Shown one piece after another: positions 4,495-47,027 of a stretch of DNA of 64,000 nucleotides. Every line of letters starts with the position of its first letter. The first letter of the stretch is position 1. Origin of the DNA: a virus; the IMG/VR virus record IMGVR_UViG_3300042565_001021, positions 1 to 64,000 of that record, one strand, 5' to 3'. Under the pieces are notes generated by a model. It did not search any database, was not told where the DNA came from, and saw nothing but the letters and a program-made list of their open reading frames with translations. Position numbers and translations under genes: made by a program.

Positions 4495-4670
4495 TTTGCT
4501 TTCTCTCCTAAAGATTTAAGTTCGATTATAAGGTCTTTAGCGAATAGCTTTTTCTTCTTAAGCTCAGTAATAGTTAAATCGTCTGCGTTGCGTTTTTCTG
4601 CTGCGGTTAGTTCTTTTTCGAGTTCGGCATGAACTTCCATTAAATGGTCAATCCTACGTTCATACGACAT
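4491..4670 (-). CDS. small coiled-coil protein, DUF465/YdcH-like
   Basis: H..L..EL...ELKKKKL..KD.I pattern. Confidence 0.55.
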   Translation of the reverse strand: MSYERRIDHLMEVHAELEKELTAAEKRNADDLTITELKKKKLFAKDLIIELKSLGEKAK

Positions 4671-4674
4671 GCTG

Positions 4675-6261
4675 TTACTCCTCAAACAGTGATGGGTTAA
4701 GTATTGGTTTCGTTGGTTCTGCTTTTACTTTGACTACCTTCTCTATGCCTAACATACCTTCAAACTCAAACGTTTCGTGGAAGAACGTGTCTGGATTGAT
4801 AAGGTCGTCTCCTTTGTTACCACGTGTTCCAATGATGCGAGCAAAGTATTTCTTGTAGTGCTCGATTAATGCTAATGCTTTACCTTTGTCGCTCGTTGCG
4901 AAGATGGCATCAATGACTTCGGCGAAGTAATGTAACTCGTATTGCCTAAATCTCTTGCCTTCCATGTAAGACGCATTCATCATCTCTGGGCGTTCGCCGT
5001 TACTGTATCGACGATTAGCTTCCTGCACCGCTTCGATATGACGATGAACGTTGTGTCCCATCAGGATAGCATAGCTGAAACTATCCCAACTGGTGCGTCC
5101 TTCTTTCCCTATCTTATTTAGGTCGCCGGGTCCATAGATACAAATATCTTTGATCGTGCAGCGTTCGCTGACTGGACTTTCTTCGAAAACAGGGAAGATG
5201 CCATCTTGTAATACTGCGTCACGGAAGCGTCGCGTGTCCGTTGAATACTTTTTGTCATCGACGCTTGGTGCCATTCTGTATGTCCATTTGTCATTGTGCG
5301 TGTATTCGTTTGCGACATAGACTTGACCGTTAGCAGTAGCTAAGAATGGACTAGCGCAGTCAAAGCTCACTGTAAAGTTTTCGTTGTGATACTTGCGTAC
5401 CGCATTTTGGATGTCAGTGAGCAACACCGCCCATTCTAGCTTACTGGTTCCTAGGAAGTGCATCCAATCGTGTTTGCCTTTCTCAAGTAATCCGTCGTGC
5501 CGTAGAGCTACTAGCCTTCGAAGGATTAGCTCAACGTCGCACATATTCTGTCCTCCCATCGACCAACCTTCAAATGGTTGTTCGTATTGCTTAGGATCGC
5601 AGTATTTCTTCATCCTGTCATACCAATCGTCTGCCTGTGCGTGTGTCTCGCCTTGTAGAACATTTAGGAATTTACAGTTCCCGTTACGATTGCGCATAAA
5701 GAATTCGTTGTTGATGTCTGTTGCTGCTACCGCTTCAGCGTAAGTGCTTACACCTGTTGCTGCTGCGCCTGCTGGGCTGCGGGCGACCCAGGCCGGAATA
5801 TCAAGGATCATTCCGTAGTCCATGTATGCGTCCATCCAGCTCAATACTTGCGCACGTTTTAACGATGCCTTAGGGCAGTTGATATTTTTCCAATCGCCTT
5901 CCCACACGCCTTTACCGATCTGGAATCCTCCGGAGTCGCCTACTACGAACGAGTATTTGCGATCACGATTGCGAACCATGTCTTCTTTCGGTGCCACTTT
6001 GTTAACATCGAGCTCGGCGTGTCCTGCCGAATACAAAGCCCACTTGTAAGGGAAGTATGCTTCTTCTTTGTTCAGCCAGTTCAGACCTTCTACTCCTGTT
6101 TCAAAGTCAGCAGGTACGCGAGCAGGATCAACGTAGTTTGGATCGAATCGTTGCTTACCTACGTAAGTCGCATAGAACCCACTAAGGGCCGGCAGGAAGA
6201 CAGCCCATCGGCTGCGCCCGTCTGCTCCTACCTGCTTAGATGTTAAGTCATCTCTTAGCAT
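4675..6261 (-). CDS. tRNA-guanine transglycosylase-fold protein (TGT/DpdA-like)
   Basis: DSGGFQ, MILD, VLQG, HFLG, SFDCAS and GHN motifs in TGT order. Confidence 0.8.
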
Positions 6262-6949
6262 TTTTCTTCTCTTCCCAAATTCGTTTCCTTGCCTCTGACA
6301 TTTTTTTCTTTGTCTCTTCAGACATTATTCTTCCTTTAAGTTTAGCACTAATTTTTGCTTTTTGCTCTTCAGTATTCGCTTTACCTTTATGTGACTCACT
6401 TAGTTTAGCACGATGTTCGTCAGTAAATATACGGCCTTTGAGTGATTCAGCATATCGTTTCACTGCTTCGTTGTTCTCTTTAGTTTTACCGGTATTCCAC
6501 GGAACATTACCTTTACCAGCTTCACTTAGCTTTTTTTTATGTTCTTCGGTTTTCGGCTTTCCCTTAGCAGCAGCAGACACTTTTTCTCCATGATTCTTTT
6601 TGATTCCCTTATTTGCTTTACTAATCTTATTTCTACCTTTTTCAGTTAGGAAAGACCCGATTTCTTTATCCTTGTTCCACGGAATAGCACCGCTACATCC
6701 ATCACCTCCGTCTGTTTGGTTACGAAGAATGCCTGTACCTAAATCTTTTCTTCCCCACCAACGAATCAGTCTGCGTTCAAGAGCAAGAGCTCCTATTTCA
6801 GTTAAGTTCGATTCTAGAATTACTATTCGGCGCCGGTCTTTAGGAACAACAACAGAGTGATTGTTTGTGTAAGCACGATTTCCTTGTCCTTTGCCGATGT
6901 AGTAAGGCGTTAGCTCAGAGGTCCGTAAGTAAGCATAAATGTAAAACAT
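6248..6949 (-). CDS. GIY-YIG homing endonuclease with NUMOD3 repeats
   Basis: YIYAY...YYIGKG, E..LI, N.TDGGDG and repeated TEEHKKKLS motifs; ATAAATA at 6969-6975. Confidence 0.85.
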
Positions 6950-7002
6950 AGTAGTCTCCTATATACTTTATTTATCTCTACTTGCGTTATCTGCTTATTA
7001 TG

Positions 7003-8022: not shown

Positions 8023-10779
8023 TTAATCAAACGAAAATAATGAATCGAACGACGATTTGACTTGAGTATTGTTGGTAATATCCCAATTCAAAACTCCGAG
8101 TAAGTTTTCGAATTTCTTAGCGATAGTATCTTCCATTTCACTACTATCGAACGGTAAATCCTTAAACCAATCTGGAATATGAAGAACGTCTGTTGGATAA
8201 GCAACCGAAGTGTATCCCATCGGATTTGGGCGAAGCTTACAGACGATGACTTTCATTCCATCAACTATCTTCATGCTGTAATTGTCGCCATTCATTCGGC
8301 GTAAGATATTCCAATTCATTGCTGCTCTGACGTGTCCGGGCAAGTTCGACTTACCTTCGCGCTCTTCTGTTTCTGTGTAGTTCGTCAAGTTGTTTACACG
8401 TTTCGGAGAACCTTTTTCCCAAGCTGGGACTTCAGCAAAGAACCGCTTAAACTCTTTAATTTTCTCAATGATCTGTTCCTTTGGCACATCGAGAAGAACG
8501 TCTTGTAAAATAACGCTTAGGAATTCCTGAACGACCTTCGGGGTGTCGCTGCGTCGTAGATCAAGTCCAGTAGCCTTTACTTTACCTAACCCTTCAATAA
8601 CACCTTTCTTCTTTGCTGTTTCGTGATCATAGTGATCAAGTCGTGTACCTTCTTGCTCATATACTAGAATAGCATAACGCTTCTTAGTAACAAACAATCC
8701 ACTGAGAGCAACAGTTTCTCGGCCGCCTTTAATCAGCGTACCGCGCTCTGATGGGCAATGGCATTCCCTCTCCATCATTGCTGGGAAGCTTTCGTTTACT
8801 TGTTCAGCAATGCTGTCGTATAGTTGGATGGCTATCTCTTTGTTCCATTCCATTTTCTTTGCTTTGACATCATCTTTAACCATTGGCCAAGCAGAGAAGT
8901 AAGCAGAGTCAGTATCACCGTACACAATAGCTTCGCCGTTGTATTCGTATTTGCCCGTTAAGCATTCGTTAATGAATGCGTCCATGTGTCTCGCAATGAT
9001 ACGACCAGTTAACGTAGTAGATTGACCTAAGCGATGATCGTGGAATCTACAACCTGGGTTAAGCAATGCTCCGTACAAACTGTTTAGGTTAATCTTCTTA
9101 ACAAGCTGTCGCTTATCCCAGAACGCAATTTCTTCTTTATCAGTTGCTGCTTTCTTTTTAGCTTGTAGTTCTTTTCGTTCAGCGTACCAAGTTGCTAGTA
9201 GCGTAGGTATAATACCTTCTGTCTCGTATTGGAAGATCGTACCGTTTGCGCTCAGGACCCACTTCTGACCACCTTCGAAGATGATACGCCATACTTCGTC
9301 TGCTGTGTGAGCAGTAGATACCCCATCTTCTTCCCAGTCAATAATGATCTCGGTACCTTTCTCCATGTTCATAACTGCGGTGTACTCTAAACTACCGAAC
9401 AGTCCTTCCCACGCGCCAGCAAACGACGCACCTTTAATCGTTTTCTTACCTACCTTCTTATCGGCCATTTTCTCAGAAATGTATCTATCAGTCATTACTG
9501 GACGAAGCTGACCGACAATAGTTTCTGGACCCATGTTCAGGGCACGAATACACGAAGGGTACAGAGAGTTAATGTCGATTGCTCCGATGTATTTGTGCAT
9601 TCCTTTTCTCGGATAAGCAACATACGCACCGGCTGCCTTTTCTGTTAGGTCCTCTTCTTTATCCTCGTCGTCTTCGTTGTGGAATGTGCGTTCCTTGCGC
9701 GACGGAACAATAAGCCCTTGCTTATGAGCAGCATTGATGATTGCCTGGTCGGTGACCGCAACCGCTCCCATAGTTGTCTGTAGCAATACTGTGTTATCGT
9801 GCGCTAGTTCGTTTGTCAGGTCCAGGAATTTTAGCTTCTTGTCAAGCTTCGCTAGTAGTATAACGTCCTGTCTGTTATAGTCTAAGAACTTGTAGTAGTC
9901 TTGGTTATACAGTTGATCCAGTGATCCCTCGTAGGACACCTTTCTCTCACCTAGCTCGTACTCACCAATAGCATCCAGCGAATAGCTGTGACGCTCTTCG
10001 TAAGTGTACTTGCGATACAGTTGCATGTAGTCAAGGTGTACGCGGCCAATTAGATCAAATGTAGTGCTCTTAGCACCGTACCGTTCGAACTCTCGCTGCT
10101 TAGGAAGCTGACCCCACAAACACATACGACGCAGGTCATCTTTAGCTAAGGTACGAATGATTCGCCCTACAATGTAGGGTATGTCGTACCCTTCGCTGTT
10201 CCAACCTGTTAAAATATCTGCGTCGTCGATGAGAGTTAAGAAAGAGTCAAGCATGTCAGCTTCTCTTTCAAACACATAAGTATCGTCGAACTTATTTGCT
10301 ATCACTTCAGCAGCTTCTAAAGACAACGATTTCGGTGGAACAGATAAAGTAACTAACTTATCTAGCCAGTCAAAGTAAATCGTGATAGCAGTGATTTTGT
10401 TGAATGGGTTATCTGTCGGAGCGTATCCACCTTGCTCTATGTCAAAGTCTGCCTCGATGTCGATAAATGCTGTGTGTAGCTTAGGAGACTTTGCTCCCAT
10501 GTAGTTAGTTTCTAAGCATCGAAAGACTACGTTACAGTCATTTTCCCACAGCCGCTTTCCACTGTGGATACGCATCTCTTTCCTAAACTCTTTATTGGAA
10601 CGAGATGTGAATCTGCTTACTGGTGTGCGGTAGATTGTTTGATGCTTACCTTTTGGGTCATCGAAATAAAAAATATATTCCGCCGGGAAATCTCTGAATA
10701 CTCGATTCCCATCTTTGTCGCGTTCTACTACGTGAATGCGATCTTTCTCTCGGTCGTGCCGTGCGTCGACGTAACTCAA
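8023..10779 (-). CDS. family B DNA polymerase (T4 gp43-like), TTG start
   Basis: exonuclease DIE and YNxxD motifs; polymerase DINSLYPS, KINLNSLYG and YGDTDS motifs. Confidence 0.97.
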   Translation of the reverse strand: MSYVDARHDREKDRIHVVERDKDGNRVFRDFPAEYIFYFDDPKGKHQTIYRTPVSRFTSRSNKEFRKEMRIHSGKRLWENDCNVVFRCLETNYMGAKSPKLHTAFIDIEADFDIEQGGYAPTDNPFNKITAITIYFDWLDKLVTLSVPPKSLSLEAAEVIANKFDDTYVFEREADMLDSFLTLIDDADILTGWNSEGYDIPYIVGRIIRTLAKDDLRRMCLWGQLPKQREFERYGAKSTTFDLIGRVHLDYMQLYRKYTYEERHSYSLDAIGEYELGERKVSYEGSLDQLYNQDYYKFLDYNRQDVILLAKLDKKLKFLDLTNELAHDNTVLLQTTMGAVAVTDQAIINAAHKQGLIVPSRKERTFHNEDDEDKEEDLTEKAAGAYVAYPRKGMHKYIGAIDINSLYPSCIRALNMGPETIVGQLRPVMTDRYISEKMADKKVGKKTIKGASFAGAWEGLFGSLEYTAVMNMEKGTEIIIDWEEDGVSTAHTADEVWRIIFEGGQKWVLSANGTIFQYETEGIIPTLLATWYAERKELQAKKKAATDKEEIAFWDKRQLVKKINLNSLYGALLNPGCRFHDHRLGQSTTLTGRIIARHMDAFINECLTGKYEYNGEAIVYGDTDSAYFSAWPMVKDDVKAKKMEWNKEIAIQLYDSIAEQVNESFPAMMERECHCPSERGTLIKGGRETVALSGLFVTKKRYAILVYEQEGTRLDHYDHETAKKKGVIEGLGKVKATGLDLRRSDTPKVVQEFLSVILQDVLLDVPKEQIIEKIKEFKRFFAEVPAWEKGSPKRVNNLTNYTETEEREGKSNLPGHVRAAMNWNILRRMNGDNYSMKIVDGMKVIVCKLRPNPMGYTSVAYPTDVLHIPDWFKDLPFDSSEMEDTIAKKFENLLGVLNWDITNNTQVKSSFDSLFSFD

Positions 10780-10844: not shown

Positions 10845-11105
10845 CTAGAGAGTACGCCCAACAGTTTCAAGAAGATCAGCAACTGTTTCGTGGTCTTCGT
10901 TCATTTCGGTGAACCTGGACTTTTGGGCAACCTTTACGGCTTTCTTCAGTAAGGCCGGTTTTATCTCTAGCTCTTCTGCTACTGCTTTGATTGTATCCGA
11001 AAGGCCTTCAGACAAGTCTTCTACTTCTTGGAGCACCGCTATGCTTTCGGTGAATAGCTGTGTCAGTTTCGCTTTCTGTTCCGGTGTAAACATCCTAGTA
11101 ACCAT
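10845..11105 (-). CDS. dsDNA-binding protein (T4 DsbA-like)
   Basis: 86-aa helical protein with IKAVAEELEIKP motif. Confidence 0.65.
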   Translation of the reverse strand: MVTRMFTPEQKAKLTQLFTESIAVLQEVEDLSEGLSDTIKAVAEELEIKPALLKKAVKVAQKSRFTEMNEDHETVADLLETVGRTL

Positions 11106-11167
11106 ACAATGAATCTCCTATTTAAATTATTATAACGTAATATTATTTGTTAAATCAACCCGTTTGG

Positions 11168-11238
11168 TATAAATAATAGTGCGGTTCGCTGGTTTCGTCG
11201 ACCCTAACCGCTCTATCGCTAACTGGAGCAACAGCATG
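11168..11238 (+). promoter_or_regulatory. late promoter plus conserved structured leader of homing endonuclease (copy C)
   Basis: TATAAATA followed by GCGGTT/AACCGC, GGT/ACC and GCT/AGC stems; same layout at 46303 and 47385. Confidence 0.7.
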
Positions 11239-11907
11239 AGTATTTATAGTCATATCGCGCCACCCACTGGATTTTATGTATACGCATATATTCGGATTAA
11301 AGATTCTAAAACAGCAAAAGCAGGCACACCTTACTACATTGGTAAAGGTAAGCAATCAAGGGCAATCGCAAAACATTCTTTTACAGTTCCGGAATGCTCG
11401 AGAATAATTATCTTAGAAGAAAACCTAACCGAAATCGGTGCTTTAGCAATTGAGAGGCGCCTTATTAGATTATGGGGCCGTAAAGATTTAGGAACCGGTA
11501 TTTTGTTGAATATGACTGACGGCGGCGACGGTGCCGAGGGGCAACTGTGTTCAGATTCGAAGAGAGCTGCTCTTTCGAAAAAGTTAACCGGGTTATCAAA
11601 AACTACCGACGCATATAAGAAAATACTATCTGACGAAATCAAGAATGGTAAGCGACCCACATTTACTACTGCCGGATATAAATTCACGGATGAACAATGT
11701 TCTAATATATCAAAAGGAAGAAAAGGGCAACCTGCGAACAACAAAGGGGTATCGCCGACAAAAGTAACCTGCTTACACTGTAAGAAAGAAGTAGATGTCC
11801 GCAACTATTCGCGATGGCATTTTAATAACTGTAAGAAGGGTGTCCGATTCGAACAAGCAGGCAGCGAATCTACTTATTCAGGTTCGGATCGACCTACGCC
11901 ACCGTAG
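11236..11907 (+). CDS. GIY-YIG homing endonuclease
   Basis: FYVYAY..YYIGKG and NMTDGGDG motifs, C-terminal CLHC...WH..NC; start moved to the ATG 7 nt after GGAG. Confidence 0.85.
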
Positions 11908-11926
11908 CCATAACGGTCCCGGTTAC
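11839..11926 (-). ncRNA. candidate pseudoknotted structured RNA
   Basis: GTAACC/GGCTAC, GGTG/CACC, AGGT/ACCT and 10-bp GAATAAGTAG/CTGCTTGTTC stems plus a TCCGA/TCGGA pseudoknot. Confidence 0.5.
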
Positions 11927-11931
11927 GTTCT

Positions 11932-13149
11932 TTATCGTCGGCCACCAAGGTCGGTGACCGGTTCCTTTAACCATTCTATGCGGTTCTTTATTTTAGCAGC
12001 AAGTGCTGGATCTTTATCGACTACTTGTTCGTATCGTTGTTCTAACTTAGCAATCTTCTCGTTAGTTATTTGATCCATTTTATGATAAGCACCACCTAAC
12101 CCACCAACAGTGCCAACAGCAATTGCAGTAGCAGCTATATTTTGTTTCCATCCTTCTTTAATCTCGTCTTCAGTAAACACTGGTGGATTTTGCTTGGTCT
12201 GTATCTTACGTTTCAGTGCTTCACGACCTTTAACACGATCCCACATGCCGCGGACTTTACCTTTAGCAATCTCACCTTTTACTTCGTCTGGTTGAGTTCG
12301 AAGATCGCGCAGTCTCTTTGCTTGTAGATTTGCTACTGTTAGGTCGTCGATCTCGCGAACAATCTTCTCTCCGTTATCATCATACTCTCTGTGTATTGAA
12401 GTTAAGTCTTTTAAACGGGAATCCCATGGAGCAAACACTTCGTTTGGTTGTACAGCAATCATATCACCTGCTGCCCAGTTCCTTAGCTTGCCACCGTTTA
12501 GTTTAATGTGACACAGTCCGGTCTCACCAATGCGCTTAAACAGTCCATACGATACATTATCTGGATGATCGTTAGCAACAATTGCTACCTGCTGACCTAC
12601 GAGTTTCTCTACACCTTTGTTGAATATGCTTCCTTGCTTGTTAGGGATGCTCTTAGTCATTGAGGCTTCTGGCACCGGAATACCTTTGTCATACCCTTCT
12701 ACATAGTATGCGTCGTATACCTTAAACCCTTGCTTCTTGTAATGTTCAACTGCTTTCTTGAGTGCGTCAACTTCGTCGCCTTTAACACGGATGAACTTTT
12801 GAATTTCCTCGTTTCTTTCTGACACTGCTACGGCGTTAGGATTAGATATCGTAACAGAGATGCGATGATAGGCTGTGTTAGATTCGTTTATAGCAGTTCC
12901 TTCATTCTCGATCTCTTCTGTAAACCCCTTTAAGGCCATTGTAGCTTTAATCTTTTCAAACGGCAAAGTAACAGGAATACGCTTCTTCTCTTGCCCTACT
13001 TCCATCTCGAAAGCGTTTTCTCCAGGACCCGTCTTCCATAGGTAGATCTTAGATGCCATGCCAGTTGGTTTATCTAGTGTAGGACCTTTGCGGAAAATAG
13101 CAATTAGCTTGCCTTCGCTTTCTTGTAAAAAGAGTTCAGTGACAAACAT
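11932..13149 (-). CDS. putative internal virion protein (modular)
   Basis: N-terminus MFVTELFLQE and internal INE-S, FTE-D and IKE-G motifs. Confidence 0.5.
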   Translation of the reverse strand: MFVTELFLQESEGKLIAIFRKGPTLDKPTGMASKIYLWKTGPGENAFEMEVGQEKKRIPVTLPFEKIKATMALKGFTEEIENEGTAINESNTAYHRISVTISNPNAVAVSERNEEIQKFIRVKGDEVDALKKAVEHYKKQGFKVYDAYYVEGYDKGIPVPEASMTKSIPNKQGSIFNKGVEKLVGQQVAIVANDHPDNVSYGLFKRIGETGLCHIKLNGGKLRNWAAGDMIAVQPNEVFAPWDSRLKDLTSIHREYDDNGEKIVREIDDLTVANLQAKRLRDLRTQPDEVKGEIAKGKVRGMWDRVKGREALKRKIQTKQNPPVFTEDEIKEGWKQNIAATAIAVGTVGGLGGAYHKMDQITNEKIAKLEQRYEQVVDKDPALAAKIKNRIEWLKEPVTDLGGRR

Positions 13150-46370: not shown

Positions 46371-47027
46371 TATATTTATTACGTTTACGCGTACCTCCGA
46401 AGTAAAGACTCAGCAACCGCTAAGGCCGGAACACCTTATTACATTGGTAAAGGCAAAGATGCCCGAATTGATAAACTACACGGGAAAGTTCCGGTACCAA
46501 AAGACAAAAAGAATCGAGTTGTTCTCGAAAGACACTTATCTGAAATTGGCGCCTTTGCCATTGAGCGTCGACTAGTAAGATGGTTTGGTCGTAAGGACTT
46601 AGGAACAGGAATACTATTAAATCAAACAGATGGCGGAGAAGGTTCTGCAGGTAGAATAATGCCAGAATCTGAACGGAAAAATAGATCAGCTCGCAATAAA
46701 GGAAAACCCGGAAGAATCTGGACTGAGGCTGAAAGACTAAACAAATCAACTCAGATGAAAGGTAGATTGCGAACAGCCGAGCAAAGGAAAGTAACATCTG
46801 AGTCATTGAAAGGTAAAGCAAAGCCGCCACGATCCGCCGAGCATAGCGCGAATCTTTCGAGGTCATTGGCAGGTAGGATTAGGAAACCGCTAACTCAAGA
46901 ACATATCGCAAATATCTCAGCCGGAAAAATAGGCAAAACTAAAGGGAAACCGTGGAGCCAAGCAAGAAGAGATGCTCACATTAAACGGTTGGCGCTTCGG
47001 GCTCAGTTGGTGTCGTCTCGGGCGTAG
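46368..47027 (+). CDS. GIY-YIG homing endonuclease
   Basis: YYVYAY..YYIGKG and NQTDGGEG motifs; N-domain very similar to 11236..11907. Confidence 0.85.

Follow-up and report, generated by a model that had tools for sequence, protein, structure and literature searches.

A pseudoknotted RNA family of uncultured T4-like jumbo phages with conserved blocks complementary to the helix 69 region of 23S ribosomal RNA

Plasmid-encoded CopA and RNA I are structured antisense RNAs that act in trans through recognition loops, and a further group of small RNAs (sRNAs) is processed from the 3' untranslated regions (3'-UTRs) of mRNAs. The RNA element described here, about 95 nt long, lies on the minus strand of a 64,000-nucleotide stretch of viral DNA (IMG/VR virus record IMGVR_UViG_3300042565_001021, positions 1 to 64,000; hereafter, the window), and by analogy its family would work most like a structured antisense RNA. 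As in CopA, RNA I and the 3'-UTR-derived sRNAs, a folded scaffold located at the 3' end of a coding transcript displays short, conserved, unpaired segments complementary to a candidate target, and, as in CopA and RNA I, the loop of its P4 hairpin carries a YUNR-type motif, UUCG. Unlike in these systems, the putative target is ribosomal RNA (rRNA) and not mRNA, the complementarity is divided between two blocks that follow each other in a "parallel" order, and no Rho-independent terminator was present in the window.

Two other described systems share part of this design. The leader of T4 gene 32 is an H-type pseudoknot of a phage mRNA, and the element is likewise an H-type pseudoknot of a T4-like phage with an A-rich strand before the second stem; it differs from the T4 leader in not being located upstream of gene 32, in having P4 inserted in the crossing loop, in an extra conserved 5' domain and in showing no sequence similarity. 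Two-site target recognition is known from the exon- and intron-binding sites of group II introns (EBS2/EBS1-IBS2/IBS1) and from the pairing of T-box leaders with tRNA. In the element, too, two parts could pair with neighbouring parts of a target in the same 5'-to-3' order. The analogy is limited to geometry: intron domains, a reverse transcriptase and tRNA-related features are all absent.

Helix 69 of 23S rRNA and the adjoining junction region are central to subunit joining, decoding, termination and recycling. Synthetic antisense oligomers and peptide nucleic acids (PNAs) directed at helix 69 address the same rRNA region by base pairing (PMC12828698, PMC12916000), which makes the idea of an RNA pairing there chemically plausible, although those molecules are man-made. 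Literature searches gave nothing relevant on the loop sequence or on phage RNAs complementary to 23S rRNA or helix 69. The 10,006 candidate structured RNAs predicted from IMG/VR by Fremin, Bhatt and Kyrpides (2023) draw on the same data source and are objects of the same kind, intergenic phage RNAs that are conserved and covary (PMC10690425). The text of that study describes no rRNA-complementary motif, and the present family may be among its unnamed candidates (PMC10690425).

Family membership and fold of the element

The element is a member of an uncatalogued RNA family of uncultured, T4-like jumbo phages of about 350 kb, in which it occurs as one copy per genome. In the window it was found where a previous reading of the letters without database searches (the sequence-only reading) had described it, on the minus strand right after the stop codon of the open reading frame (ORF) 11932..13149, which encodes a 405-aa protein. 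It consists of the following parts:

11841..11932, minus strand: whole RNA element, about 95 nt, from the AAGAAC lead to the 3' strand of the pseudoknot plus two trailing bases
11927..11932, minus strand: single-stranded lead AAGAAC, whose first A is the last base of the TAA stop of the 405-aa gene
11902..11919, minus strand: block X and hairpin, GGACCGUUAUGGCUACGG, an antisense image of 23S helix 69
11913-11917 with 11901-11905, minus strand: ACCGU/ACGGU stem
11920-11928 with 11896-11904, minus strand: candidate outer helix P1, ACGUAACCG/CGGUGGCGU, enclosing block X
11892-11895 with 11880-11883, minus strand: P3 hairpin, AGGU/ACCU, with the loop CGAUCCGA at 11884-11891
11870-11879 with 11851-11860, minus strand: P4 hairpin, GAAUAAGUAG/CUGCUUGUUC, 10 bp with two G-U pairs
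11861-11869, minus strand: P4 loop AUUCGCUGC, 9 nt
11860-11868, minus strand: block Y, UUCGCUGCC, complementary to 23S 1929-1937 with one G-U pair
11884-11888 (in the P3 loop) with 11843-11847, minus strand: pseudoknot UCCGA/UCGGA

Megablast and blastn comparison of the region with 50,697 phage records revealed no close relative, and no match was obtained with a strict 20-nt pattern or by a protein-pattern scan of viral contigs for the 405-aa neighbour. Nine contigs with an identical 405-aa protein were 100% identical across the element and hence uninformative; the first informative relatives came via homologues of this protein (59-68% identity in the aligned part). One of them (L181:2314-2412) is located directly 3' of the homologue's stop codon, and the other (L178:5689-5784) one small ORF past the homologue, just before dsbA. 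Compared with the window, both have a wholly different P4 stem sequence with the loop retained, and a P3 altered by compensatory substitutions. A three-sequence covariance model yielded two further members among loci fetched by dsbA similarity, and a collecting pattern composed of AAGAAC, GGACCG and GATTCGCTACC with gaps matched at least 120 viral contigs, with about one match expected by chance. Application of the same pattern to 596 Gb of prokaryote genomes resulted in four matches, all in coding sequence (e.g., in an 898-aa ORF), for which a rough chance estimate is about six, and a metagenome scan gave three, all of them chance matches inside coding sequence. The pattern itself forces three blocks to be invariant in most members; in members found by models alone, AAGAAC, GGACCG and the P4 loop can each vary.

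A second covariance model, R2, found exactly one match per locus. It gave one strong match in each of five 97-100% complete genomes (345-358 kb) and one match in six of 12 further viral records, mostly fragments, and its match at 11836-11934 of the window (46.2 bits, E 2.5e-9) was the sole one in the entire 155-kb record. The family members are about 92-110 nt long. Cultured Sinorhizobium phage Phosso, Agrobacterium phage Atu_ph07 and Serratia phage BF contain no copy, and a weak match in Escherichia phage 121Q was rejected, as it lies antisense inside a coding sequence and the motif is absent. A partial second copy was observed at 76964-77020 of the G001 record, to which locus L187 belongs; it comprises only P3, P4 and the tail (model positions 41-98), lies about 525 nt upstream of dsbA, and looks like a remnant left by relocation, the full copy being 190 kb away, before the large terminase gene.

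Covariation was measured on the 89-sequence family model alignment, to which the pairing figures below refer unless another alignment is named. The covariation score was 0.335, against 0.120 for shuffles (none of 500 reached the observed value) and at most 0.117 with slid partners. The fold to which the alignment points consists, from 5' to 3', of the AAGAAC lead, a 5' domain showing (CCUUA)GGACCG, P3, and P4 with the loop AUUCGCUAC; the P3 loop pairs with the bases that directly follow P4, which makes the fold an H-type pseudoknot. Of the helices, P3 has 97.7% of its cells paired, and each of its four pairs covaries (e.g., GC 46 and CG 42 at one pair); the core of the pseudoknot is 94% paired, one pair occurring as CG 69, GC 11 and UA 1; and pairing in the lower and upper stems of P4 reaches 76-77%, each stem showing between four and six types of pair. 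The sequence-only reading had drawn these three pairings correctly (P3 as AGGT/ACCT, its loop TCCGA with the downstream TCGGA, and the 10-bp P4 with two G-U pairs). Two of its five pairings were wrong: the P1 that it proposed, GTAACC/GGCTAC, is 59.5% paired and shows no covariation, and its GGTG/CACC helix involves bases past the pseudoknot that are not conserved in relatives. Both the GCG linker and the CGC loop, for which a tertiary pair had also been suggested, are nearly invariant.

The pairing of the loop with downstream bases, accompanied by compensatory change, is what defines an H-type pseudoknot, and it was seen repeatedly. The window pseudoknot forms 5 bp with its own tail and 2 bp with the family-consensus tail; the unusual P3 loops of L216, L296, L200, L206 and L287 also pair with their own tails and not with the consensus one, and independent compensatory pseudoknots occur in L181, in L178, in a GGGUGCU/GACC group and in a GGCUACU/GUAGC group. 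On the element strand, G-U pairs numbered 55 compared with 25 A-C combinations, so the strand running with the flanking genes is favoured, in agreement with the minus-strand assignment made earlier and with the co-orientation of the flanking genes.

The 5' domain is less uniform. In the window subtype, it would adopt either the long P1 (ACGUAACCG/CGGUGGCGU) or the ACCGU/ACGGU hairpin, which compete for the CGGU bases: 79% of the P1 cells are paired, with two double-sided changes, and 46 of 500 shuffles reach its score, and the hairpin is invariant in the 7-sequence subtype alignment. Other subtypes have a clear P1 enclosing GGAC, with or without an inner hairpin. The AAGAAC lead is invariant in alignments A3 and A4, in part since the search pattern demanded it. 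The folding energy of 88 nt of the element was -28.4 kcal/mol, with a z-score of -1.28 relative to shuffles on the minus strand (-1.94 on the plus strand). Taken by itself the element thus folds no better than shuffles, and thermodynamics alone would not have flagged it; a real fold need not stand out by its energy z-score.

Comparison with known classes gave no identity. Rfam 15 gave no match to the element of the window, even with E values up to 10 admitted, nor to eight typical family loci searched with E up to 1; this included the hammerhead, twister, twister-sister, pistol, hatchet and hepatitis delta virus (HDV)-like ribozymes, none of which was matched in the window or in typical members, and the order of helices differs from that of the HDV-like and pistol folds. 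No tRNA or transfer-messenger RNA (tmRNA) was detected by ARAGORN in the window or the 155-kb record. The P4 loop AUUCGCUGC, previously regarded as T-loop-like, has a C at the would-be A58 and so departs from the UUCRANY motif with its U54-A58 pair. No terminator-like site was found on the minus strand between 11830 and 11934, and the bases 3' of the window fold, CACCCUUCUUAC, contain no U-tract. The position after a stop codon, the intervening promoter and the unrelated neighbouring genes do not suit a riboswitch, nor does one copy per complete genome and locus suit a T4-type dispersed regulatory cassette, which has many copies. Several further candidates were tried and rejected: association with tRNA clusters (no tRNA gene in 47 of 50 family loci), a replication origin (no turn of GC skew near 11.9 kb in the window), a short upstream ORF (the ATG of the 5' hairpin opens frames of 5 and 17 codons in two members, and a third has ATA in its place), and a frameshift or readthrough signal (a second stop codon follows two codons after the first, the length varies from 92 to 110 nt, and the flanking genes are unrelated). 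The Rfam scan and the covariation check among relatives thus agree with the earlier view of a structured non-coding RNA of no known class: the family is conserved, covarying and pseudoknotted, its homologues carry compensatory changes, and no known family was matched. Among the ribozyme-, riboswitch- and sRNA-like natures then considered, the sRNA-like one fits best, given the position after a stop codon and before the next promoter and the blocks antisense to 23S rRNA.

Complementarity to ribosomal RNA

With E. coli rrlH as the reference for rRNA comparison, the conserved CCUUAGGACCG(U) (block X) is the exact reverse complement of 23S 1919/1920-1930/1931, that is, of the 3' strand of helix 69 and the following junction, and the P4 loop UUCGCUACC (block Y) is the exact reverse complement of 23S 1929-1937. 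The 23S sequence CGGTCCTAAGG(T) (1920-1931) is matched in antisense over 11-12 nt by at least 57 of the 89 members, and GGTAGCGAA (1929-1937) is matched perfectly by 84 of them; the stems of P4 covary heavily while its loop stays conserved. Both blocks are exposed in the manner of trans-acting antisense RNAs: the apical loop of 9 nt holds block Y, and GGAC(CG) is placed in a bulge or loop. In L178, 18 of 18 nt are antisense to 23S 1908-1925, which is all of helix 69 including its loop. In the window, 11910-11919 perfectly complement 23S 1916-1925 (10 nt), and 18 nt complement 1908-1925 with one G-U pair and one mismatch; the sole change in the P4 loop of the window (A to G) still allows pairing, as G-U. 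In the window subtype, the entire 5' hairpin reproduces helix 69 in antisense, which also explains why the ACCGU/ACGGU hairpin never varies, since the rRNA hairpin that it mirrors is itself invariant. The two blocks address adjacent segments of 23S rRNA whose conservation is universal; E. coli shares the 24-nt target without any difference with one genome of the Terriglobia and one of the Pseudomonadales.

An adjacent bipartite match (at least 11 and at least 9 nt) to any rRNA, in either orientation, arose in 13 of 20,000 shuffles of a family member, a figure that is not a clean probability, as the match was recognised post hoc, rRNAs are long and the members are kin. The complements of the conserved blocks are not enriched in the phage's own genome. 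The rRNA complementarity is judged, from these sequence comparisons, to be strong but not proven.

Some further complementarities were observed. For the P3 loop of most members (GGCUGCU), taken with flanking stem bases, the antisense partner is 16S 517-528 (the 530-loop region), and for the tail AGUGAGC it is 23S 1099-1105; conservation covers only 7 nt in either case, and both may be due to chance. The P3 loop of the window (11884-11891) is a divergent version. In L137:1563-1650 and L152:3836-3935, the P4 loop GAUUCGCUACC is replaced by G(G)AGUCGUGCC with the remaining fold retained; the complement of the replacement loop includes GCACGA, which is present in 23S rRNA about 30 nt downstream of the usual target.

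We tentatively interpret the element as a trans-acting phage RNA that docks on the rRNA of the large subunit. Release or stabilisation of the 3' end of the upstream transcript would give a small RNA that acts in trans, with its two loops docking on domain IV of the large-subunit rRNA, either in nascent 23S rRNA or in the free 50S subunit. First contact would be made by the apical P4 loop, with its YUNR-type UUCG, and by the GGACCG loop; P1, whose 3' strand is target-like, would open by strand displacement after the GGACCG contact, and the pseudoknot scaffold would keep the blocks apart, protect the RNA and provide stability and geometry. The outcome, in a speculative extension, would be an altered assembly or function of host ribosomes at bridge B2a and the A site, affecting subunit joining, termination or recycling, perhaps with a loss of the bridge. 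A bolder proposal, which is possible but which we regard as rather doubtful, is that this giant-phage family encodes a dedicated anti-ribosomal RNA on a pseudoknot scaffold that pairs with the helix 69/helix 70 stretch of 23S rRNA, which is conserved universally and lies next to the A site at intersubunit bridge B2a, and that thereby reprogrammes or disables host large subunits. Such an RNA could block 50S maturation or subunit joining, weaken the action of release factors (an option to be set beside the amber-suppressor tRNAs and tmRNA of some clade members), or shield the site from rRNA-cutting toxins.

A number of points weigh against docking on rRNA. The evidence comes from sequence comparison, and under a strict demand for exact matches the window fails, with 10 perfect nt at one site and, at the other, 9 nt that include a G-U pair. 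Blocks X and Y follow each other in parallel order, X before Y, and not as a contiguous antisense; as their targets also overlap by 2 nt, simultaneous binding would need an unusual junction. The CCUUA portion of block X is paired within P1, and the target is itself structured, 23S 1920-1924 being paired in helix 69 of mature ribosomes. The subclade of L137 and L152 has another P4 loop, GAGUCGUGCC, and L108 has none. RNAduplex, with huge loops allowed, gave energies for the window RNA and 23S rRNA that were no better than those of shuffles. Finally, the complementarity could be a relic of an origin from a fragment of ribosomal DNA (rDNA): local alignment beyond helix 69 found only a gapped, weak extension, so that an antisense-rDNA origin of the whole element is no more than suggestive.

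Genomic context and rival explanations

The element starts 0-30 nt from the upstream stop codon, which overlaps AAGAAC in about two-thirds of the loci, and the sequence upstream of it is ordinary coding sequence without a common promoter. Downstream, there is either a sigma-70-like promoter preceding dsbA or, before other genes, an ATAAATA box followed within about 10 bases by ATG; the element is not a 5' leader, because the promoter for the next gene lies downstream of it. A U-run right after the 3' strand of the pseudoknot is found in about one-third of the members. The neighbouring genes are diverse on both sides (dsbA-like, radical SAM, DNA-binding protein, terminase, tail fibre, endolysin-like, polynucleotide kinase-like and nuclease genes), and in nearly all loci they are co-oriented with the element strand. 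Its usual place is 0-11 kb upstream of dsbA-polB; the distance in complete genomes is about 70 nt, 1.2 kb or 11 kb, apart from one genome in which 190 kb separate the two. In this arrangement, the element would be made as the 3' end of whichever gene precedes it; the picture is that of a single-copy unit which would close a transcription unit and have variable cargo inserted at its 3' edge.

In the window, the minus-strand order is the 405-aa gene, the RNA element, the dsbA-like gene and polB, with an endonuclease gene placed between the element and the dsbA promoter:

11932..13149, minus strand: ORF of the 405-aa gene, function unknown, with its TAA stop at 11932-11934
11236..11907, plus strand: GIY-YIG homing endonuclease gene, 223 aa (gene-finder call), with PHROG homing-endonuclease matches; called also on the identical contigs
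near 11163-11170, plus strand: late-type promoter box TATAAATA of the endonuclease gene
11129-11158, minus strand: sigma-70-like promoter TTGATT-18-TATAAT preceding the dsbA-like gene
10845-11105, minus strand: dsbA-like gene
8023-10779, minus strand: polB, downstream of the dsbA-like gene

Pfam and PHROG searches with the 405-aa product gave no match, and the transcript of its gene most likely carries the RNA element as its 3' end. The last 23 codons of the endonuclease gene (11836-11904; KGVRF...PTPP) and its stop codon (11905-11907) overlap the element on the opposite strand. Its protein has 25 residues after the last zinc-finger Cys, compared with 2-12 in its relatives, which bears out the earlier description of this tail as run-on sequence, and the endonuclease cassette is cargo inserted at the 3' edge of the element.

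If the element acts in cis at the 3' end of the upstream transcript, its fold would end or protect that transcript (by blocking 3' exonucleases, as a processing site or by partial termination) and insulate the dsbA-polB promoter, and the rRNA complementarity would be incidental or a relic of ancestry. The constant position directly after a stop codon and before the promoter of the next gene, the U-runs of some members and the insertion of cargo genes, including the window endonuclease, just downstream, as behind terminators, all speak for this explanation. We nevertheless consider it unlikely: the element is present as a single copy in a 350-kb genome with hundreds of transcript ends, its unpaired blocks are conserved far beyond the need of a stabiliser or terminator, the window has neither a U-tract nor a called terminator-like site, and the match of the conserved blocks to adjacent 23S sequences is left unexplained. 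A ligand- or protein-binding regulatory RNA, i.e., a riboswitch-like aptamer or an operator for a phage protein, would account for the complex fold with its pseudoknot and conserved junctions and for the alternative pairings that are possible (extended P3 or pseudoknot, P1 or ACCGU/ACGGU hairpin); it is improbable in view of downstream genes that are mutually unrelated and have their own promoters, upstream genes that are equally diverse, no conserved expression platform and no Rfam riboswitch match. Somewhat more improbable still would be a new class of self-cleaving ribozyme cutting the polycistronic transcript, for instance at the AAGAAC lead after the stop codon. The compact, pseudoknotted form with about 25 highly conserved junction and loop nucleotides and peripheral stems of variable length is typical of small ribozymes, and the location in phage genomes is intergenic and co-transcribed, but no Rfam model (the ribozymes named above and others) matched at E up to 10, and a target reached by base pairing accounts better for the conservation of GGACCG and of the apical loop of P4.

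The two remaining explanations are both very improbable. A site acting as DNA, be it the target of a homing endonuclease, a hot spot of recombination or a replication origin beside the replication genes, could be imagined from the single copy near dsbA-polB, from the endonuclease genes that recur nearby and from the cargo at the 3' edge; the covariation, including that of the pseudoknot, and the excess of G-U over A-C instead indicate selection on a folded single strand, GC skew does not turn there in the window, and the endonuclease is absent from most loci. It is similarly hard to credit the opposite strand with the function, as a sense mimic of helix 69 and the junction serving as an rRNA decoy. 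That strand does carry sense copies of 23S 1908-1925 (perfect in L178) and 1929-1937, is the 3' end of the endonuclease mRNA in the window and folds slightly better there (z -1.94), but nearly all other loci have both flanking genes along the motif strand and no obvious opposite transcription, and the G-U pairs of the motif strand, including two in P4 of the window, would become A-C (55 against 25).

The window is part of a 155-kb record of 44% estimated completeness, from a T4-like phage whose DNA polymerase does not exceed 48% identity to the polymerase of any phage in culture; the closest cultured phages by this protein are Sinorhizobium phage Phosso, Agrobacterium phage Atu_ph07 and the ~350-kb Rak2/121Q group. 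Within these 155 kb, at least four to six paralogues of the GIY-YIG endonuclease were observed (11179-11904, 46377-46706, 94736-95101, 6488-6967, 150882-151175 and 65839-65931), sharing the N-terminal nuclease domain (49-58% identity) and not the C-terminal part. Those at 6488-6967 (minus strand, in the window) and 150882-151175 (plus strand) have one in-frame TAG each; in view of the suppressor tRNAs that relatives carry, TAG readthrough or recoding may occur in some genes, or these copies may be broken. Endonuclease genes recur near the element in the window, in one relative's contig and in G017.

Cargo genes 3' of the element (in L186, L187, L190, L191, L193, L208, L211, L213, L227, L254, L289, L291 and L293) have an (A/T)ATAAATA-like box within the first 10-40 nt. 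It resembles the T4 late promoter and is located about 5-10 nt before ATG without a Shine-Dalgarno sequence, a placing that suggests that late mRNAs of this clade have no leader or almost none; dsbA differs in being preceded by TTGAC-17-TATAAT and AGGAG. Permuted (two-piece) tmRNA genes, with tags ending in ALAA or AIAA, and amber-suppressor tRNAs with a CUA anticodon were observed 1-5 kb from the element in relatives (L201:3994-4372 and 4617-4690; L223:8374-8779; L204:12170-12246). At L200:2030-2099 (minus strand), about 600 nt from the element, there is a partial match to YrlA (Y RNA-like) of 32.6 bits, below the gathering score of 69; ARAGORN found no tRNA in this locus.

Significance of the family

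The element represents a new RNA family with, potentially, a new kind of target. If docking on rRNA is true, the family would form a new class of non-coding RNA in phages and, as far as the literature searches reached, the first natural RNA built for pairing with 23S helix 69 and its junction, a natural counterpart of the synthetic anti-helix-69 oligomers, and the idea would be directly testable by expression in E. coli, because the target sequence is identical there. Even if the link to rRNA proves incidental, the family is a well-supported new structured RNA with at least 120 members, a compensatory pseudoknot and one copy per genome, which marks a conserved landmark and a hot spot of cargo insertion upstream of the replication genes in an uncultured clade of ~350-kb phages.

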